Shown: positions 33,694 through 40,602 of the stretch, in pieces
How positions within the stretch are numbered: position 1 is the stretch's first letter
Layout of the letters: each line of letters opens with the position of its first letter
Source of the DNA: Trueperaceae bacterium
GTDB taxonomy: Bacteria; Deinococcota; Deinococci; Deinococcales; Trueperaceae
DNA: 64,000 nucleotides
Direction of reading: 5' to 3'
Assembly (NCBI GenBank): GCA_965213925.1
Contig: OZ243927.1
Coordinates: 2,752,001 to 2,816,000, forward strand
Made by a program: the position numbers and the translations under genes
Notes under the pieces: model-generated
Told to the model about the DNA's origin: nothing
Database searches by the model: none
Seen by the model: the letters and a program-made list of their open reading frames with translations, nothing else

Positions 33694-34522
33694 TTAGAGC
33701 GCTGAGTGCAGGAGATGCAAGAGCGTCTCGTGCCCTTTGCCGTGCGGCTTCGTGACCTCGTGGTCGGCGCTGAACTCGTGCAGCGTGACGGGGCCGGCGA
33801 GCCGGCGTCAGAAGCGTTGCGCGTGTCTTTGGGCGTCACCGTCGTGTCGTCGAATCCCTTGCAAGATGCGCGTGGGCGCGTTCACGCGCGTCAGCGACGT
33901 GGTAGGCAGCGAACGCCCGAGCTTGCGCAGTTCGTCCACCGAAGAGGTCGGCAAAACGACCTCTTCGCGCAGCCGCCGCTGCACCTCGGCGTCGTCCAGG
34001 TCAACGCCCGGCAGCCGCCGCTCGAACTGTTGACGCACGGCTGCGTCGGCAAAGTCAGCCTTTCCGAACGGTCTGAGGGTCGGCATCACATATTTGACGA
34101 GGGGCAAGAGGCGCGTGCGCGGGTCGTTCATGCGCCAGAACGGGGCGATGAGCACGAGCTGATCGGGCGGACAGGACAGCCGCGAGGTGGAGCGCGAGGG
34201 CTCCGCCCATCGAGAAACCTATGAGCAGCGTTCGCTGCGTTTCTACTCCCGCTTCGTCGTCAGTCTGGAGCGCTCGCCAGTGTTCCAAAGCGGCGCTGCG
34301 CCAATCTTCCCAGCGCTTCTCGCCGAGGCGGGGTATGTCCATACCGAAGCCCGGCAAGAGGGGCGCGGTCGCCCTGTAGCCGCTCGAGCCGAGCATCTGG
34401 GCGACCCCGCGCAGCTCCGCGGGCGTGCCGGGAAAGCCGTGTAGTAGGAGCGCCCTTCGGGAACCGTTGCCGAGCGTAAAGGTCTGGTGTTCGGGTGCGC
34501 CGTAAAAGGTAGCTGCGTCCAC
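33694..34522 (-). pseudogene. Alpha/beta hydrolase (carboxylesterase-like), frameshifted as assembled
   Basis: LLHGFPG and GFSMGG in the first frame; PPDQLVLIAPFW...ILQG in the next; DDTTV and ADH (Asp/His) appear after further shifts. Confidence 0.78.
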
Positions 34523-34625: not shown

Positions 34626-35532
34626 CTAGAGCGTAAGCTGCTCGCCGAACCTTCTGTCCCATTCGGGCGGAGAGAAGGGACCTACGCCTGCTTCCGGATG
34701 AAAGGTCAGCTCGCCGAAATAGATGTCGCCCTCGATGTTATAAAAGTCAACCCTCACGAGGCGAAAGTCTTGGGCGACCGTCTCTGCGAGCGCCTTCATC
34801 TCGTCGAACTTGGGCGGCGCGGGGATGTCCGGACCGTTCTCGTACTTCCACGCGCAGTCGATGAAGGTCCAGTCCGGGTCATAGAGGTTGCGCTTGTGTC
34901 CGGTGAATCTATCTAAGTCGACCTGGATAAACGCCACTTTGCCGTTGAAGCAGTGGAATTTGTAGTCGTTGGGAACGTCAGAGCCCTCGAGCAGGAGCTT
35001 CTCTACGACGATGCGCGGCTCGATATTCTTGTACTGCCACTCCTTCCAGCGGTGGTAGTAGTTCCTTTTGAGCTGCGTGCGCAGTGACTTGCGGACGGCT
35101 TCAAAGTCGACGTGTGACTTGTCCCTGACGATAAAGGCTCCGCCGCCGCTATTGTGGTTCGTCTTGATGATGTGCGGCGTGTCGGGCAGATTTTCAGGTT
35201 TGATGTCAGCCGGGTCTTGCGTGTGAAAGAGTAGGGGGACGAGGTAGGCTTCGCCCAGCTTTTCCTTTATGTAGTCTCGCACGGCGTACTTGTCGGCGCA
35301 TACCGTATGGAGCGGTTTTCTTTCGTTCAGCTTGAGCCACGTGATCTTTTCGTTTAAGGTCTTAGGGATTGTCCAAGTCCGGCTCGTACCCTAGCCTATT
35401 TCGGAACGCCTGCTTGATAAACACTTTTTCGGGAATCAGCGGGACGATGCGAAAGAGGTACACGTCGCTGAGCACCTTAAAAAGGGGGGTCAACAAGGGT
35501 CCAACTCTCGAGTTTTTAAGGGACCTAACCAC
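34626..35532 (-). pseudogene. TupA-like ATP-grasp amidoligase with one frameshift near 35366
   Basis: LGYEPDLDNP|KTLNEKITWLKL...ADKYAVRDY, KTNHNSG, DYKFHCFNG, VRVDFY, YFGELTF.P; extra C in AATCCCTAAG. Confidence 0.8.
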
Positions 35533-35983
35533 GTTTCACGCTTCCTTTCTACCCATCTTGAAACTCGCTGGAAGGATGCTCACAGTCCCTTCAAGACGTT
35601 TTTGCAACCCTCTCATACGTAAAATACGCGACCTTACCACTCAACGTTGAGGGCGAACTCACACCGATAAGCGAGCACAGAACGCTAAGATCAGTTCTCA
35701 GAACAAATCGTTCTAATCAACCGTTGAAAAGCGTCGAGGTGAGGGTAGGTACTCAGGGCGGCTAGCCGCCCTAAATGCCTCATCTACTCGTCCAGTCAGC
35801 ATACAATAGGAAATTTTTGGGGCGCGTGGACCTGGTACATTTTTCTCGCCTCGCCGCAATGATGAGGTGTTGATGAAGCCGCCGCGTTACGTTAGTGATT
35901 GCCGCCGTGCGCCAATGCACGTTACACTGAAGATGCTATGCTCTCTCATCTGATTAAGCCAGCGGGCGCTTAGGATACTAGTA

Positions 35984-36685
35984 ATGGACCTTCTTCGCAG
36001 CGGCGGACCTGTACTCATCGCTATTTTGCTCATCTCTTTATACGCGCTCTACCTCTTTATCGAGCGCCTTCTCAAGCTCTCTAAAGAACGCATGGACGTC
36101 GACAAGCTGATGGCGCGCGTCAACGCCGCCGTGCGCGAGCGCAACCTCGAGATGGCGCTCGTCGCCTGTGAGAATCACGGCGGACCGATCGCGAGGGTCT
36201 TAAAGGCCGCTCTGACGCGCCTGCCTTATGGACGCGCCGCCGTCGAAGCCGCCTTTCAGGAGGCGACCTTGGGCGAAGAGCAGCGGCTCACGAAAGGCCT
36301 GCGTCCGCTCGGCACCATCGCGCAGATCGCGCCGCTCTTGGGGCTTTTAGGAACCGTTACGGGCATGATCATCGCGTTTTCAGAGATTTCGCAGCAGGGT
36401 ACGGGCAACCCCGCCGCCTTAGCCGACGGCATCGGGCAGGCGCTCGTGACCACCGCGGCGGGTCTTATCGTGGCGATCCCCTCCCTTATCGGGTATAACT
36501 ACCTCTCGAGCCGCGTGGACAATATCCTCCTAGAGATCGAGCGCCGCCGCGAAGAGCTGATGGGCAACGTGGTCGAGGTGGTTTCGGGGCGCAAGGAGCG
36601 GCGCGGCGAAGGAGCCGACGCCGAGATGAACCGAGACGATACAGTGAGAGACGAGGACGACTATGAACCGGTTCGGGCGTCTTAG
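35984..36685 (+). CDS. exbB: MotA/TolQ/ExbB proton channel protein
   Basis: TIAQIAPLLGLLGTVTGMIIAF, GIGQALVTTAAGLIVAIP. Confidence 0.92.
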   Translation: MDLLRSGGPVLIAILLISLYALYLFIERLLKLSKERMDVDKLMARVNAAVRERNLEMALVACENHGGPIARVLKAALTRLPYGRAAVEAAFQEATLGEEQRLTKGLRPLGTIAQIAPLLGLLGTVTGMIIAFSEISQQGTGNPAALADGIGQALVTTAAGLIVAIPSLIGYNYLSSRVDNILLEIERRREELMGNVVEVVSGRKERRGEGADAEMNRDDTVRDEDDYEPVRAS

Positions 36686-37076
36686 CCGCAGGAACCGCAC
36701 GGGCCTAGGGCTCGACCTCACGCCGATGGTGGACGTGGTGTTCTTGCTCGTCATCTTCTTCATGGTCTCGACGACGTTTATCACGCTCGAGTCGGGGCTG
36801 CCCGTCGACTTGCCCCAAGCGCAGAGCAGCCAGGCGCAGTCGTCGGAACTGCCGACGGTGACTATCAATCAAGACGACCAGATTTTCGTGGGCGGCTCGC
36901 AGGTCGCCGAGGGCGACCTCGTCGCGGTGCTCCGCGAGGTCTTGGCGTCGAGCGCCTCGGACACGGTGGTGCTCCGCGCCGACCAGTCCGTGCGCTACGG
37001 CTTGCCGGTGCGGGTGATGGACCTGATCAAACAAGCCGGGGCGCAGCGCGTCGCCATCGCGACGGGTGGCAACTAG
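36663..37076 (+). CDS. exbD: ExbD/TolR biopolymer transport protein
   Basis: LTPMVDVVFLLVIFFMV, VDLP, VVLRAD...YG....VMD. Confidence 0.92.
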   Translation: MNRFGRLSRRNRTGLGLDLTPMVDVVFLLVIFFMVSTTFITLESGLPVDLPQAQSSQAQSSELPTVTINQDDQIFVGGSQVAEGDLVAVLREVLASSASDTVVLRADQSVRYGLPVRVMDLIKQAGAQRVAIATGGN

Positions 37077-39009
37077 AAACGTGCGACGCAGGAACTATCG
37101 GGAGAACGAACGGAGCTTCTGGCGCGACAAGGAGAAGCGGCGAGCCTTCCTCCTGTCGCTTCTCCTACATCTGGGGGGAATCTTTCTAATCATCTACGCC
37201 TACGTCACGCCGACGCCCCTGGAGCCCGAAAACTTCATCGTGTTAGAACTTGGTCCGAGCGAACAAGCGGACACGAACGACGCGGCAGCCGCCGCCGACC
37301 CCGCCCCGCAAGCGGCAGAGCCGGAAGTGGCGAGCGAGGCGGCGGGTGCGCCGCGCACGCCGACCGCTGCGCCTACGCCGGAGGCGTCAGCCGCGCCCCA
37401 AGCACAAACGCAACCGGCGCAGGACCCGACCCCAGCCGCCCCGCCAGCGCCCCAAGCGAGCGTGCCCGCGCCGCGCGCCGAGCCGCTCGACTTGCCGCCA
37501 CAAGAGGCTGCGGCGACGCTACCCGAGGTCGAGGAGGTGGAACTCGAGCCCCAACCCCTCGCCGAAGCCATCCCCGTACCGCGGCCCAGCGCCGCCGCGA
37601 ACGTGCCCGAAGCGCGCTCGGTTGCCGCGACCCCCCGAGTTCAGGTCGCCGCCCGCGTCGCCGTGCCCGAGCCCAGCGCGCAGGTCGCTGTCGCCGCCGA
37701 GCAGAGCGTGCCGACGCCCCAGGCGCAGGCGTCCGTCGCCGCAGCGAGACCCGTGCCGACGCCCGACGTGAGCGCGAGCGTGCCCGAACGGGCCATCCCC
37801 CAGCCGCAAGCCCAGGCGTCCGTGCCGAGTGCGCAGAGTGTGCCAACACCCCAAGTTGCGGTCGCGGTGCCGACCCCGAGGGCGTTAGCAGTCACGCCAG
37901 GCGTGCAGGTGGCTGAAGCGGAAAGCATCCCGAGCCCGCAAGTCACTGTGGCGGCGGAAGTGCCCGAGACGCCCAGCCAAGCCGCTGAAACGGCCGAAGC
38001 GTCCCAGTCCGGCGACCAGGCCGCGCAGAGAGAGGTCGACGCCGTCGGCGGCAACGCGCCCGACACCGGGCAGACGCAAGTTCAGGACGCCGCGCAAGCG
38101 GACAACGCGGGCGCGGCGAGCGCGCCCGAAGCTTTGAGCGCGCCGCCAGCCGGAGCCCCGGCGAGCCGCACGCCCTACGAGGTGCGCCGCACCCAGCCCA
38201 TCGCGGTGGTCCTGGACAACGCGCTCGGCTACCCGCAGACGGGCTTACGCGAGGCCTCCGCCGTGTTCGAGATGCCCGTGGAGGGCGGGCTGACGCGGCT
38301 CATGAGCGTCTACAACAACCCCAACAGCACGCCCCGCGAGGTCGGTCCGATCCGCAGCGCGAGGGAGTACTTCGTCGCGGCGGCGAGCGCGATGGACGGC
38401 ACGCTCGTTCACGTCGGCGGCTCGCCGAGTGCCTTGAGCGACATCGCCAGAGGACGCACGACCTTGGACGCCTTGGAGCAAAGTGAGCCCTTCTTCGTCG
38501 CGAGCAGCCAGCGCGCACCTTACAGCACCTACGCCAGCGGCAGCGCACTCCGGCAGGCCATCGCCCGCCTCGAGCTAGACGCTTCGCGCGTCCTGCGCGG
38601 CTCCGCGTACCGCCCCGCCGATAACGCGCCCGGCGCGGCGAGCGTGTCGGTGAACTACTCGGCGGACTACTCGAGCGGCTTTCGCTACGTCTCGTCGCTC
38701 GGTCAGTACCGCTGGCTCAGAAACGGCGCGGACGCCTCCGACGCGGGCGGCGAGGACGTGCTCGTCGACGCGGTCGTCACCGCGCAGGTCACGGCGTTCC
38801 CCTACCCCGGCGACCCCGAAGGCCGCCTCTACTTGCCCTACAGCGGCGGCGACGCGACCCTCTTCTTGCGCGGCAAGGAGATTCCCGGCACCTGGAGCCC
38901 CAGGGACGGTTTCAGCTTCTTCGCCGAAGACGGCGAGGCTATCGACTTAGCGCCCTACAAGCACTGGATTCTCTTCGCGCCGGAGTACGCCGAAGTCACT
39001 ACGGGCTGA
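37066..39009 (+). CDS. TonB/TolA-like membrane-anchored Pro/Ala-rich protein with a C-terminal DUF3048 (YerB-like) domain
   Basis: TM helix with SLLLH motif; long Pro/Ala/Gln/Val-rich linker; PIAVVLDN..PQTGL..A..VFEMPVEGGLTRLM, GPIRSAR.YF, HVGGS. Confidence 0.8.
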   Translation: MATRNVRRRNYRENERSFWRDKEKRRAFLLSLLLHLGGIFLIIYAYVTPTPLEPENFIVLELGPSEQADTNDAAAAADPAPQAAEPEVASEAAGAPRTPTAAPTPEASAAPQAQTQPAQDPTPAAPPAPQASVPAPRAEPLDLPPQEAAATLPEVEEVELEPQPLAEAIPVPRPSAAANVPEARSVAATPRVQVAARVAVPEPSAQVAVAAEQSVPTPQAQASVAAARPVPTPDVSASVPERAIPQPQAQASVPSAQSVPTPQVAVAVPTPRALAVTPGVQVAEAESIPSPQVTVAAEVPETPSQAAETAEASQSGDQAAQREVDAVGGNAPDTGQTQVQDAAQADNAGAASAPEALSAPPAGAPASRTPYEVRRTQPIAVVLDNALGYPQTGLREASAVFEMPVEGGLTRLMSVYNNPNSTPREVGPIRSAREYFVAAASAMDGTLVHVGGSPSALSDIARGRTTLDALEQSEPFFVASSQRAPYSTYASGSALRQAIARLELDASRVLRGSAYRPADNAPGAASVSVNYSADYSSGFRYVSSLGQYRWLRNGADASDAGGEDVLVDAVVTAQVTAFPYPGDPEGRLYLPYSGGDATLFLRGKEIPGTWSPRDGFSFFAEDGEAIDLAPYKHWILFAPEYAEVTTG

Positions 39010-39013
39010 CCCC

Positions 39014-39826
39014 CTACGCGCGCCACCTCGCGAGGCAGCGCTCAGCCTCCCCCGCCAACCACGCACCAAACGCCTCGACGAAAAGCTCACTCTCCGGGTT
39101 TACTTCGGGCTTGATCGCTAGCTCGAGCGCTCTATACATCTCCCCTTTATGCGCGGGATAGTGTTTCGCGAAGCTCTCGTAACAGAGATAAAGGTCGCGG
39201 GTGTAGCGCCTCTCTTCTATCATCACCAGTTCCATCCCCAAGCGGAGAAAGCGCCGCATCAGCCAGACCAAAAAGTTAGCCTTTTCCGCCTCGGGTTCCT
39301 GCGGATACTCATCCAAGAAGAGGTCTAGGTGTTGCTGAAAGTGTTTAGTCTGAAAGGCGATACTATAGTCTAGCGCGTACGGCTCAATATCTCTCGCCAA
39401 ATCGTCGCCGTACACACAAGCGGCTTCCGTTTTGAGGATGAAGGTGTAGGGGTTGTCCCGCTCGAGGACGCCCGCGTACGCCTCGAGTCCTACTTCAACG
39501 CCAGCGACGAAAGGAAACGCGCTCTGAATAGCCTGCTCGACCTCTTCTGCCCAGACCTTCACCTCGTCATACGTCACCGTATTGTCCCAGCTAGGCTCCA
39601 TCACCGCGAAGCTGTCGATGTCAGACACATGCTCGACAGGCGTCCCCTTCGCCAAAGACCCTCGGACGTAGAGGCTGTGAAGGTTGGGCCACCGCTCGAG
39701 ATACGCCCGCTCTAACATCTGCACGGCTTCTAACCACGCGCCTTGAATATTGGCGGCGTCGCCGACGCTCTGTAAGTACCCCCGCGCGTCAACCTCTTGA
39801 TACTTGCCGATTCGCCTAATCTCCAC
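39014..39826 (-). CDS. Pol-beta superfamily nucleotidyltransferase domain protein
   Basis: YVRGSLAKG....SDIDSF motif plus helical C-terminus; start uncertain (GTG 39826 or TTG 39859). Confidence 0.75.
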   Translation of the reverse strand: MEIRRIGKYQEVDARGYLQSVGDAANIQGAWLEAVQMLERAYLERWPNLHSLYVRGSLAKGTPVEHVSDIDSFAVMEPSWDNTVTYDEVKVWAEEVEQAIQSAFPFVAGVEVGLEAYAGVLERDNPYTFILKTEAACVYGDDLARDIEPYALDYSIAFQTKHFQQHLDLFLDEYPQEPEAEKANFLVWLMRRFLRLGMELVMIEERRYTRDLYLCYESFAKHYPAHKGEMYRALELAIKPEVNPESELFVEAFGAWLAGEAERCLARWRA

Positions 39827-39921: not shown

Positions 39922-40602
39922 CTAGAGCGAATACCCACCCACCTCATCGTCGCGCACGACCTGACCATTTCTCAGCACGATGGTGCGGCGGCGGAGCTGG
40001 TCGACGAGTTCTCTGGCGTGCGTCGCCACGACGACGGTCGTTCCCTTGATGTTGAAATCGTTGAGCAGCTCTAAAATCTCCCAGCTCGTGTCGGGGTCCA
40101 AGTTGCCGGTGGGCTCGTCGCAGAGGAGCAGCGGCGGGTTGGTGACCATCGCCCGCGCGATGGCGACGCGCTGCTGCTCGCCCAAGGAGAGTTCGACGGG
40201 GAACGCTTTGCGTTTATGCGCCAGCGCGACCTGGCGCAGCGCCGCCAACGCCCGCTGCTCGTAGTTGCCGCGCTCGCCCACCGCCCTGAGCGCGAAGGTG
40301 AGGTTGTCCGCCGCGCTCAGGTGCGGCAAGAGGCGGTGGCTCTGAAAGACCATGCCGATCCTGCGGCGCAAGAGCGGCAGCCTGCGCTCGCGCAATTTGC
40401 TGAGGTCTTGCCCTAGAATATAGACGCTGCCCTCGGTCGGGTTGATGCGCCGCAGTAGTAGCGACAGCAGCGTCGACTTGCCCGCGCCCGAATGCCCGGT
40501 GATATAGAGAAACTCACCCTTCTGAATGCGGAAGTTGACATCTCTCAGCGCGTGCGTGTGGGTGCGCGGGTAGGTTTTGGTGACGCGGTGAAACTCGATC
40601 AC
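39922..40602 (-). CDS. ftsE: Cell division ATP-binding protein FtsE
   Basis: MIEFHRVTKTY, GHSGAGKST, LRRRIGMVFQ.HRLL, GEQQRVAIARA, DEPTGNLDP, GTTVVVATH. Confidence 0.88.
   Translation of the reverse strand: MIEFHRVTKTYPRTHTHALRDVNFRIQKGEFLYITGHSGAGKSTLLSLLLRRINPTEGSVYILGQDLSKLRERRLPLLRRRIGMVFQSHRLLPHLSAADNLTFALRAVGERGNYEQRALAALRQVALAHKRKAFPVELSLGEQQRVAIARAMVTNPPLLLCDEPTGNLDPDTSWEILELLNDFNIKGTTVVVATHARELVDQLRRRTIVLRNGQVVRDDEVGGYSL

Follow-up and report, generated by a model that had tools for sequence, protein, structure and literature searches.

The coupling of TonB-type proteins to their motors has been described in terms of a transmembrane (TM) motif, SHLS, defined as Ser-x3-His-x6-Leu-x3-Ser (PMC12215075). 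According to the same report S16 and H20 of TonB, and S18 and H22 of TolA, touch S34 and W38 of ExbB (S28 and W32 of TolQ) together with P190 (P187), and the D-box of TonB, 45-ISVTMVT-51, is the strand that binds the ExbD dimer. TonB-like stalks with another kind of head are already in print: vWA-headed 'motor-driven force transducers', encoded next to tolQR-like genes and a tetratricopeptide repeat (TPR) gene, have been reported and are of unknown function in the accessible part of that report (Williams-Jones et al., 2025, Mol Biol Evol msaf138; PMC12204202). Here a three-gene locus is described in which exbB- and exbD-like genes are followed by a gene for a protein of TonB/TolA topology that ends in a DUF3048/YerB domain. 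It lies in a window of 64,000 nt (the whole stretch of DNA that was analysed) from a Trueperaceae bacterium (Deinococcota; assembly GCA_965213925.1, contig OZ243927.1, positions 2,752,001-2,816,000), the genome of which measures 4.75 Mb and is 96.9% complete. With a probability of roughly 60% the trio is one operon for a Ton/Tol-type envelope machine driven by the proton motive force (PMF), its third product being a force transducer with a wall-directed DUF3048 head.

The original prediction, made from the letters of the DNA, had placed three overlapping genes on one strand at this site, and the list of open reading frames (ORFs) matched it exactly. The first gene (35984..36685, +, ATG start) codes for an ExbB/TolQ-like proton-channel subunit of 233 aa (PF01618 MotA_ExbB, E 6.1e-33), the second (36663..37076, +, ATG start) for an ExbD/TolR-like subunit of 137 aa (PF02472 ExbD, E 2.1e-32) and the third (37066..39009, +, GTG start) for the 647-aa protein of TonB/TolA topology, which was assigned from Pfam, fold and motifs. 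The four Pfam matches of the trio (MotA_ExbB, ExbD, DUF3048 and DUF3048_C) all exceeded the curated cut-offs. Overlaps of 23 nt between exbB and exbD and of 11 nt between exbD and the third gene suggest that the translation of the trio is coupled.

The first two products have the marks of the MotA/ExbB/TolQ and ExbD/TolR motors, namely the family domains, the TM aspartate of ExbD and the pore threonines of ExbB. Asp24 of ExbD was invariant in 12 of 12 aligned homologues, and an ungapped alignment equated Thr124, Thr157 and Pro166 of ExbB with T148, T181 and P190 of Escherichia coli ExbB. Ser18 of ExbB aligned with the Ser in TM1 of TolQ, and among the sequences that could be parsed by pattern this residue was kept in 25/25 Trueperaceae-type and 11/11 Atribacterota ExbB proteins. 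In NCBIfam both subunits were closest to the tolQ/tolR and exbB/exbD models and scored below every equivalog cut-off (92.6 for ExbB with the tolQ model, the cut-off being 221); the tolQ/tolR models scored slightly higher than the exbB/exbD models, all of them below cut-off. This exbB is the sole MotA_ExbB match of the genome.

The N-terminus of the third protein resembles that of a TonB-type transducer. As had been predicted, a lone TM helix (approximately residues 27-47; 37144..37206, +), preceded by RRRA, carries a Ser-x3-His pair, S31 and H35. Both residues were nearly invariant in an alignment of homologues (A1) and the pair was present in 56 of 56 intact Trueperaceae-type N-termini. The second half of SHLS, His-x6-Leu-x3-Ser, is not kept, the corresponding positions being I42 and Y46. 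Approximately nine residues past the helix a D-box-like hydrophobic strand, 56-FIVLELG-62 (37231..37251, +), was recognized by its pattern conservation; it was kept in 56/56 Trueperaceae-type loci and was visible in all N-termini from Atribacterota, a sister family and Deinococcaceae in a profile alignment (A5). The acidic, Pro/Ala/Val/Gln-rich linker, delimited by composition (residues 48-370; 37207..38175, +), had been put at about 320 aa and counts 323 residues (A 25%, P 18%, V 10%, Q 9% and E 9%), of which 39 are acidic and 11 basic. It holds some eight repeats of the form hydrophobic-P-x-P-x-(A/V) and, at 37672-37764, a 45-nt tandem repeat; its length differs from one homologue to the next, the whole proteins measuring 536 to 979 aa. 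Thus both a Pro-rich, extended periplasmic spacer and a gene that adjoins exbB-exbD or tolQ-tolR, as in TonB/TolA-type proteins, were found.

What the linker carries is neither a TonB_C nor a TolA_C domain. Residues 372-502 (38179..38571, +) matched the N-terminal domain of DUF3048 (PF11258, E 1.5e-32) and residues 527-635 (38644..38970, +) its C-terminal domain (PF17479, E 3.8e-9), with bit scores of 113.3 for DUF3048 and 37.3 for DUF3048_C against a gathering cut-off of 25. At E<=0.01 these were the only two Pfam families returned for the C-terminal part. The five DUF3048/YerB motifs named in the original prediction (VLDN, PQTGL, E.PVEGG.TR, GPIRSAR and HVGGS) are all in the translation, on invariant or nearly invariant columns of DUF3048. 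A sequence search of the PDB gave YerB of Bacillus subtilis (2psb) as its sole match (E 1.6e-23, residues 357-641). An AlphaFold2 model of residues 355-647, based on a 46-sequence alignment, reached a predicted local distance difference test score (pLDDT) of 93.7 and a predicted template modelling score (pTM) of 0.91. With this model Foldseek found one PDB match at E<=1e-3, which was again YerB (E 5.6e-24, TM-score 0.78), and VIA-align, run against 48,161 representative chains, superimposed 2psb with Z 32.3 and a root mean square deviation (rmsd) of 2.5 over 266 residues at 26% identity. Since Pfam and the fold searches returned only DUF3048/YerB, the head is not a hidden TonB_C or TolA_C; judged by profile and model it is a bona fide DUF3048 domain. 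This bears out the predicted placing of another effector domain on an ExbBD-linked stalk.

The head is conserved in a manner that would fit a functional site. N385, G393, E406, G408, G427, P428, R433 and G451 were invariant across the 46 long and stand-alone forms, as were several Gly and Trp residues of the second DUF3048 domain, and D384, Q391, R411, R430 and S431 were nearly so. Such a pattern may mark a ligand site or an active site. The function of YerB is left unassigned in the accessible part of a 2026 lipoproteome survey (PMC13068155). A search of the full-text literature returned no functional paper on DUF3048, nor one on YerB of B. subtilis, nor anything relevant on ExbB-ExbD and TolA in Deinococcus, and no account of a DUF3048-headed transducer was found in the literature search.

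To the resemblance of the N-terminus, that of its profile can be added. The A5 profile, 100 positions built from 38 sequences of Trueperaceae, Atribacterota, the sister family and one Deinococcaceae protein, retrieved 114 proteins at E<=1e-3 (44 at E<=1e-10) from 1.84 billion representatives, and the 43 of non-fragment length were scanned with Pfam. DUF3048 forms made up nine of these. Of the other 34, seven bore TonB_C or TonB_2 at E<=1e-3, three of them above the cut-off (P0315, P0319 and P0336), with library E-values from 1e-5 to 1e-3, which is weak but specific; 25 had no Pfam family, and three of those resemble a Bacteroidota-type TonB with S-x3-H and a GILVxxG strand. As the profile retrieves proteins with TonB_C or TonB_2, the N-module is profile-similar to genuine TonB N-termini; by this measure it is akin to them, and it is joined in nature to several different heads. 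In two of the matches an S-x3-H helix and a D-box-like strand precede yet other domains, a squalene-hopene-cyclase-like head in P0305 (515 aa) and a DUF930 head in P0318 (346 aa). These proteins are candidates for further alternative-head transducers.

The trio is conserved as a unit. A whole-genome search that took in 40 relatives detected the fused protein in 24/24 genomes of Trueperaceae and in 4/4 of one sister family, and in none of the four genomes each from three other families of the same order. The trio was kept in all 28 of those carriers and recurs in Atribacterota, so that the fusion and its synteny with exbB-exbD, which had been expected to be shared by related genomes, were confirmed. 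In 11 of 11 related loci exbD lay directly upstream, and exbB was present in ten, the remaining locus being cut inside exbD. Likewise, in species-representative genomes exbD was directly upstream in 56/60 Trueperaceae-type loci and the other four were cut at their 5' end. The genes that flank the trio are not conserved beyond the same genus while the trio is, which implies that it forms a self-contained module. A protein database search yielded 67 long forms (439-868 aa, E<=9e-60) and then, after a sharp drop, stand-alone DUF3048 proteins of 355-451 aa at E>=3e-21. In the sister family the synteny (4/4) and the strand, there GYL[VL][LV]E[LF]G, were preserved.

Next after Trueperaceae, the head has its best genomic relatives in Atribacterota. 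There the DUF3048 gene followed exbB-exbD in 11/11 loci with upstream sequence, and four more loci start at or inside the gene. The proteins measure 479-508 aa and have Ser-x3-Asn in the helix (15/15), followed by a strand of the [VI][VI][VI]EL type. This version has the same motor, the same kind of stalk and the same head as the Trueperaceae trio, but S-x3-N takes the place of S-x3-H, the charged linker is shorter, and the module adjoins a giant TPR protein of about 1,220 aa with TPR_6/YfiO-type repeats, whereas the Trueperaceae have a bare three-gene operon. In a Candidatus Caldatribacterium locus (L088:687-7876) two near-identical exbB-exbD pairs flank the gene for the 1,220-aa TPR protein, and the DUF3048 stalk gene and lgt come after the second pair. 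In Firmicutes exbBD was absent from 5/5 loci with an upstream flank of at least 6.7 kb; the DUF3048 proteins were of 338-368 aa with lipoprotein-type N-termini. Their neighbours were housekeeping genes (hisS-aspS...mgsA; phoH-pgpH-ybeY/dgkA...era-recO), which gave no functional clue to the stand-alone form in these five loci.

The rest of the genome was searched for other Ton and Tol components. The third gene of the operon is its sole DUF3048 match. The original prediction had noted that no TonB-dependent receptor, tolB or pal gene lies nearby. For the receptor and TolB this could be extended to the whole genome, in which neither a TonB-dependent transporter (TBDT) barrel (PF00593), nor a Plug (PF07715), nor TolB_N was found; for Pal it stands for the neighbourhood, as no tolB, pal or cpoB is present in the operon and the genome-wide search did not cover Pal/OmpA. 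The partners of a Ton system and those of Tol-Pal were thus both missing within these limits. The only TonB_C protein of the genome is an orphan of 415 aa (L003:1495-2742, -, corresponding to G000:C1 at approximately 1086074-1087321). Its N-terminus is a signal-peptide-like segment and not an SHLS-type helix, and its gene adjoins that of an ankyrin-repeat M23 peptidase, far from exbBD.

These data bear on the possibility that the third protein is merely anchored. It would then be a membrane-bound wall protein, the diderm form of YerB, that is co-transcribed with exbBD by chance and in which S-x3-H is incidental, the motor serving another client such as the orphan TonB_C protein. The existence of that orphan and the lack of the Ser/His pair in the sister family speak for it, as does the occurrence of DUF3048 elsewhere on unrelated TM anchors (P0178 and P0225) and on lipid anchors. 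Yet the orphan has neither the helix nor the location of a client of this motor, the trio is kept across two phyla while its flanks vary, and its ORF overlaps suggest translational coupling. Besides, S-x3-H or S-x3-N was present in 71/71 N-termini, the D-box-like strand is kept even in the sister family and the N-module profile retrieves real TonB proteins. Anchoring alone is therefore regarded as improbable.

It is still less probable that the head energizes an unrecognized outer-membrane importer through a receptor other than a TBDT. The TonB-like architecture would allow this, and Ton systems have been inferred for most diderm phyla, as stated in the accessible part of the report on vWA transducers (PMC12204202). 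Against it stand the absence of TBDT barrels and Plug domains from the genome, the lack of any receptor, binding-protein or transporter gene conserved beside the trio and the fact that DUF3048 is common in monoderms.

A third possibility is an analogue of Tol-Pal, in which the same motor and stalk would carry DUF3048 as a passive module, neither enzymatic nor activating, that captures a partner anchored in the outer membrane or the wall. During division the outer membrane would thereby be tethered or made to invaginate, in the manner of TolA and TolB-Pal. The slightly better scores of ExbB and ExbD on the tolQ/tolR models (all below cut-off) and the absence of TBDTs and TolB from the genome agree with this, and the TPR_6/YfiO-type repeats of the Atribacterota TPR protein recall CpoB. 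Tol-Pal was reported only within Gracilicutes in the accessible part of the same study (PMC12204202), so that, on this reasoning, the diderms discussed here need another energized envelope system. However, DUF3048 is widespread in monoderm Firmicutes, which have no outer membrane, and the Trueperaceae module is without a TPR gene. The conserved polar and charged residues and the catalytic slot that DUF3048 takes in a PcsB-like protein (see below) also suit an active or ligand site better than an adaptor. A Tol-Pal analogue is therefore considered rather unlikely.

A link of the head to the cell wall is suggested by the company that DUF3048 keeps, along with its motor-less lipoprotein form in the five Firmicutes loci and the retention of the invariant polar residues of the family. 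Pfam architectures were found in which it is fused to a PcsB-type coiled coil (P0210, P0238 and P0240), to a domain of the beta-lactamase/penicillin-binding protein fold (P0158 and P0163) and to PEGA domains (P0195 and P0199). FtsEX activates wall hydrolases through coiled-coil partners of this kind. In an operon on one metagenome contig (L133:6409-9431) a CC_PcsB::DUF3048 gene overlaps the end of ftsX, itself located after ftsE, and nearby genes encode a lytic transglycosylase (SLT/TPR), a glycosyl hydrolase (DUF4015) and an SLH protein. In this protein, CC_PcsB::DUF3048, the DUF3048 domain stands where a CHAP, NlpC-P60 or LytM domain normally sits. By analogy, DUF3048 may be a wall-directed effector that has repeatedly been wired to membrane energy transducers. 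A wall-directed role of the head is put forward tentatively, at somewhat less than even odds. It is doubtful, though conceivable, that DUF3048/YerB is at large a wall-remodelling or hydrolase-activating module that needs mechanical actuation, driven by ExbBD via a TonB-like stalk in diderm Terrabacteria (Deinococcota and Atribacterota), driven by FtsEX via a PcsB coiled coil in some Clostridia, and surviving as the lipoprotein YerB in monoderms. Were this right, a 5:2 proton motor would for the first time be seen to serve a wall enzyme and not an outer-membrane receptor, and the DUF3048 family could have begun with the motor-linked form.

The following mechanism is proposed. ExbB and ExbD would form the membrane motor, and the third protein would act as the force transducer, its TM helix docking on the exterior of ExbB through Ser31 and His35. 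The FIVLELG strand past the helix would be gripped by the periplasmic dimer of ExbD. The motor would then pull or reposition the 323-residue Pro/Ala-rich stalk, which would bear the YerB/DUF3048 head into the zone of the wall. The head, in the place of TonB_C or TolA_C, would most likely bind or process a cell-wall component; hence the task of the motor would be to actuate or place a module directed at the wall, which is the logic of FtsEX-PcsB with the PMF as the source of power. The motor-transducer architecture is held to be highly probable, and physical coupling and the transmission of force would follow from that architecture. That the force is delivered 'across a thick envelope', as had been written of the locus earlier, is speculation.

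Several observations weigh against the operon being such a machine. Pfam and NCBIfam gave no TonB-type match on the N-terminus of the third protein, for which NCBIfam has no family at all, and in the ESM Atlas the TonB_N and 1TM_TonB clusters scored 0.76-0.83 with residues 1-120, below the lead threshold of 0.9. The position of W38 in ExbB (W32 in TolQ) is Leu22 here and Leu, Val, Ala or Ile across the relatives. The sister family has Ala-x3-Ser/Thr/Glu and not Ser-x3-His, and Thr at the position of the ExbB Ser. As its synteny is nonetheless kept, the family can do without the His, and the changes in the helix and at the ExbB Ser may reflect co-variation, seen in one lineage only. The orphan TonB_C protein is a possible other client of the motor. 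The head has no fold relative of known function, the next one after YerB having Z 3.2 (IF2 domains, taken as noise). The CC_PcsB::DUF3048 gene is next to ftsEX in one of two loci; the other gene (L139), the only such gene that 210 genomes of that class yielded, does not adjoin ftsX.

The phylogeny of the head is equivocal in a similar manner. In a quick maximum-likelihood tree of 101 heads, those of Trueperaceae and the sister family formed one clade (SH-aLRT 99) and those of Atribacterota and P0144 another (SH-aLRT 100), and the free tree parts the Trueperaceae-type from the Atribacterota heads, by weakly supported branches, which also counts against a shared motor-linked ancestry. In an approximately unbiased (AU) test a tree that constrained the 31 motor-linked heads together was 27.6 log-likelihood units better than the free quick search (p-AU 0.82), a figure to be read with the quickness of the search, the presence of compositional outliers and, as a further point on the negative side, the naming of the group after the tree had been seen. 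With this p-value one origin of the motor-linked heads is not rejected.

The surroundings of the operon were inspected as well. A 701-nt gap 5' of exbB (35283..35983, strand not assigned), in which no ORF with a family match occurs, is presumed to be the promoter region. From 35000 to 39500 a search of Rfam (E<=0.1) and a promoter and terminator scan gave no Rfam match, no sigma-70-like site and nothing else of use. On the 5' side of the gap is a gene for a TupA-like ATP-grasp protein (identified by Pfam). The GC content of this gene and the gap together (34626-35983) is 0.52-0.56, against 0.64-0.72 for the operon. As the ATP-grasp gene had a counterpart in 0/80 related loci, it may be a recent insertion. 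Farther upstream a 155-aa ORF (34055-34522, -) matched the first half of an alpha/beta-hydrolase profile only, and just downstream a 115-aa ORF (33808-34155) overlaps it in another frame, so the region 33808-34522 (-) may be a frameshifted gene. On the other side, approximately 0.9 kb from the operon and on the opposite strand, lies a gene for an ABC ATPase (39922-40602, -), the Walker and signature motifs of which suggest an FtsE-like protein; it has no ftsX beside it. It was considered as a partner of the operon and rejected, since the pairing is kept only in a locus of the same genus (L020) and thus indicates no link.

In Deinococcaceae (L018:2866-4647, -; L100-L129) exbB-exbD are followed by the gene for a protein of 530-870 aa with a T-x3-H helix, a very long Pro/Ala/Thr linker and a C-terminal two-Cys module of about 120 aa, which was present in 41/41 genomes searched. 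The module had no Pfam match. Its AlphaFold2 model (pLDDT 77.6) resembles residues 180-318 of Tp0624 from Treponema pallidum (5jir_A), with Z 10.5 and an rmsd of 3.4 over 105 residues, and with a Foldseek probability of 0.97 (E 0.044). As this domain occupies the slot taken by DUF3048 in Trueperaceae, the models suggest that members of the order have exchanged the head of the exbBD-linked stalk.

The DUF3048/YerB family is large and extracytoplasmic; its structure was released in 2007, yet it has no function in the accessible part of the 2026 survey (PMC13068155). The apparent wiring of the family to two kinds of membrane energy transducer offers a first tangible clue to its role. Both Deinococcota and Atribacterota have two membranes and, as far as searched, no Tol-Pal, and the present genome is without TBDTs. 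The sole ExbBD-type motor of this genome appears to be dedicated to the stalk, which makes the trio a prime candidate for the energized envelope system of these bacteria.

Among described systems the vWA transducers come closest. They share with the trio the TM helix with the His of SHLS, a motor box (putative in the trio), the disordered Pro-rich linker, a globular head that is not of the TonB type and a gene beside a TolQ/ExbB-TolR/ExbD-type motor; a TPR gene is present there, as it is in the Atribacterota version (PMC12204202). They differ from it in the head, which is DUF3048/YerB here (no vWA match, YerB fold), in the TPR gene, which the Trueperaceae lack, and in their hosts, which in the accessible part of that report are Proteobacteria, PVC bacteria, Bacteroidota and Rhodothermota and not Deinococcota and Atribacterota. 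Its main text and one supplement do not mention DUF3048, Truepera, Deinococcus or Caldatribacterium; YerB is likewise absent from the main text and Atribacter from that supplement. As TonB-like stalks with other heads are already in print, what is described here is a further form of them, DUF3048-headed, conserved and not ordinary. New are the three-gene form of Deinococcota, which in a receptor-less genome is the only ExbBD system, the series of S-x3-H, S-x3-N and degenerate motifs, the profile link of the N-module to real TonB, the parallel with FtsEX-PcsB::DUF3048 and the finding that the AU test does not reject one clade for the motor-linked heads. Taken with the vWA heads of that report, and with the DUF930 and terpene-cyclase-like heads, the DUF3048 head lends support to the idea of the TonB N-module as an all-purpose coupler into which varied periplasmic effectors can be plugged.

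With ExbB-ExbD-TonB of E. coli the trio has in common the gene order, the Ser-x3-His helix, the D-box-like strand, the Pro-rich spacer and the Ser in TM1 of ExbB. Unlike TonB, the third protein lacks TonB_C, occurs in a genome without TBDTs and has an acidic linker about three times as long; the equivalent of ExbB Trp38 is aliphatic, and SHLS is without its Leu and its second Ser. TolA of Tol-Pal follows the same anchor logic, the motor is marginally nearer to TolQ/TolR and a role in the maintenance of the envelope is plausible, but TolA_C is missing and the hosts lie outside the Gracilicutes, to which Tol-Pal is confined in the accessible part of the report cited above. With YerB of B. subtilis (2PSB) the head shares the two-domain fold and the invariant residues, whereas YerB, a 320-aa chain, is annotated as a stand-alone lipoprotein and has no motor. 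FtsEX with hydrolases of the PcsB/CwlO type likewise combines a membrane mechanotransducer, an elongated connector and an extracytoplasmic effector. That system is driven by ATP and its connector is a coiled coil, whereas the system in the window is proposed to be driven by the PMF through a TonB-like connector.

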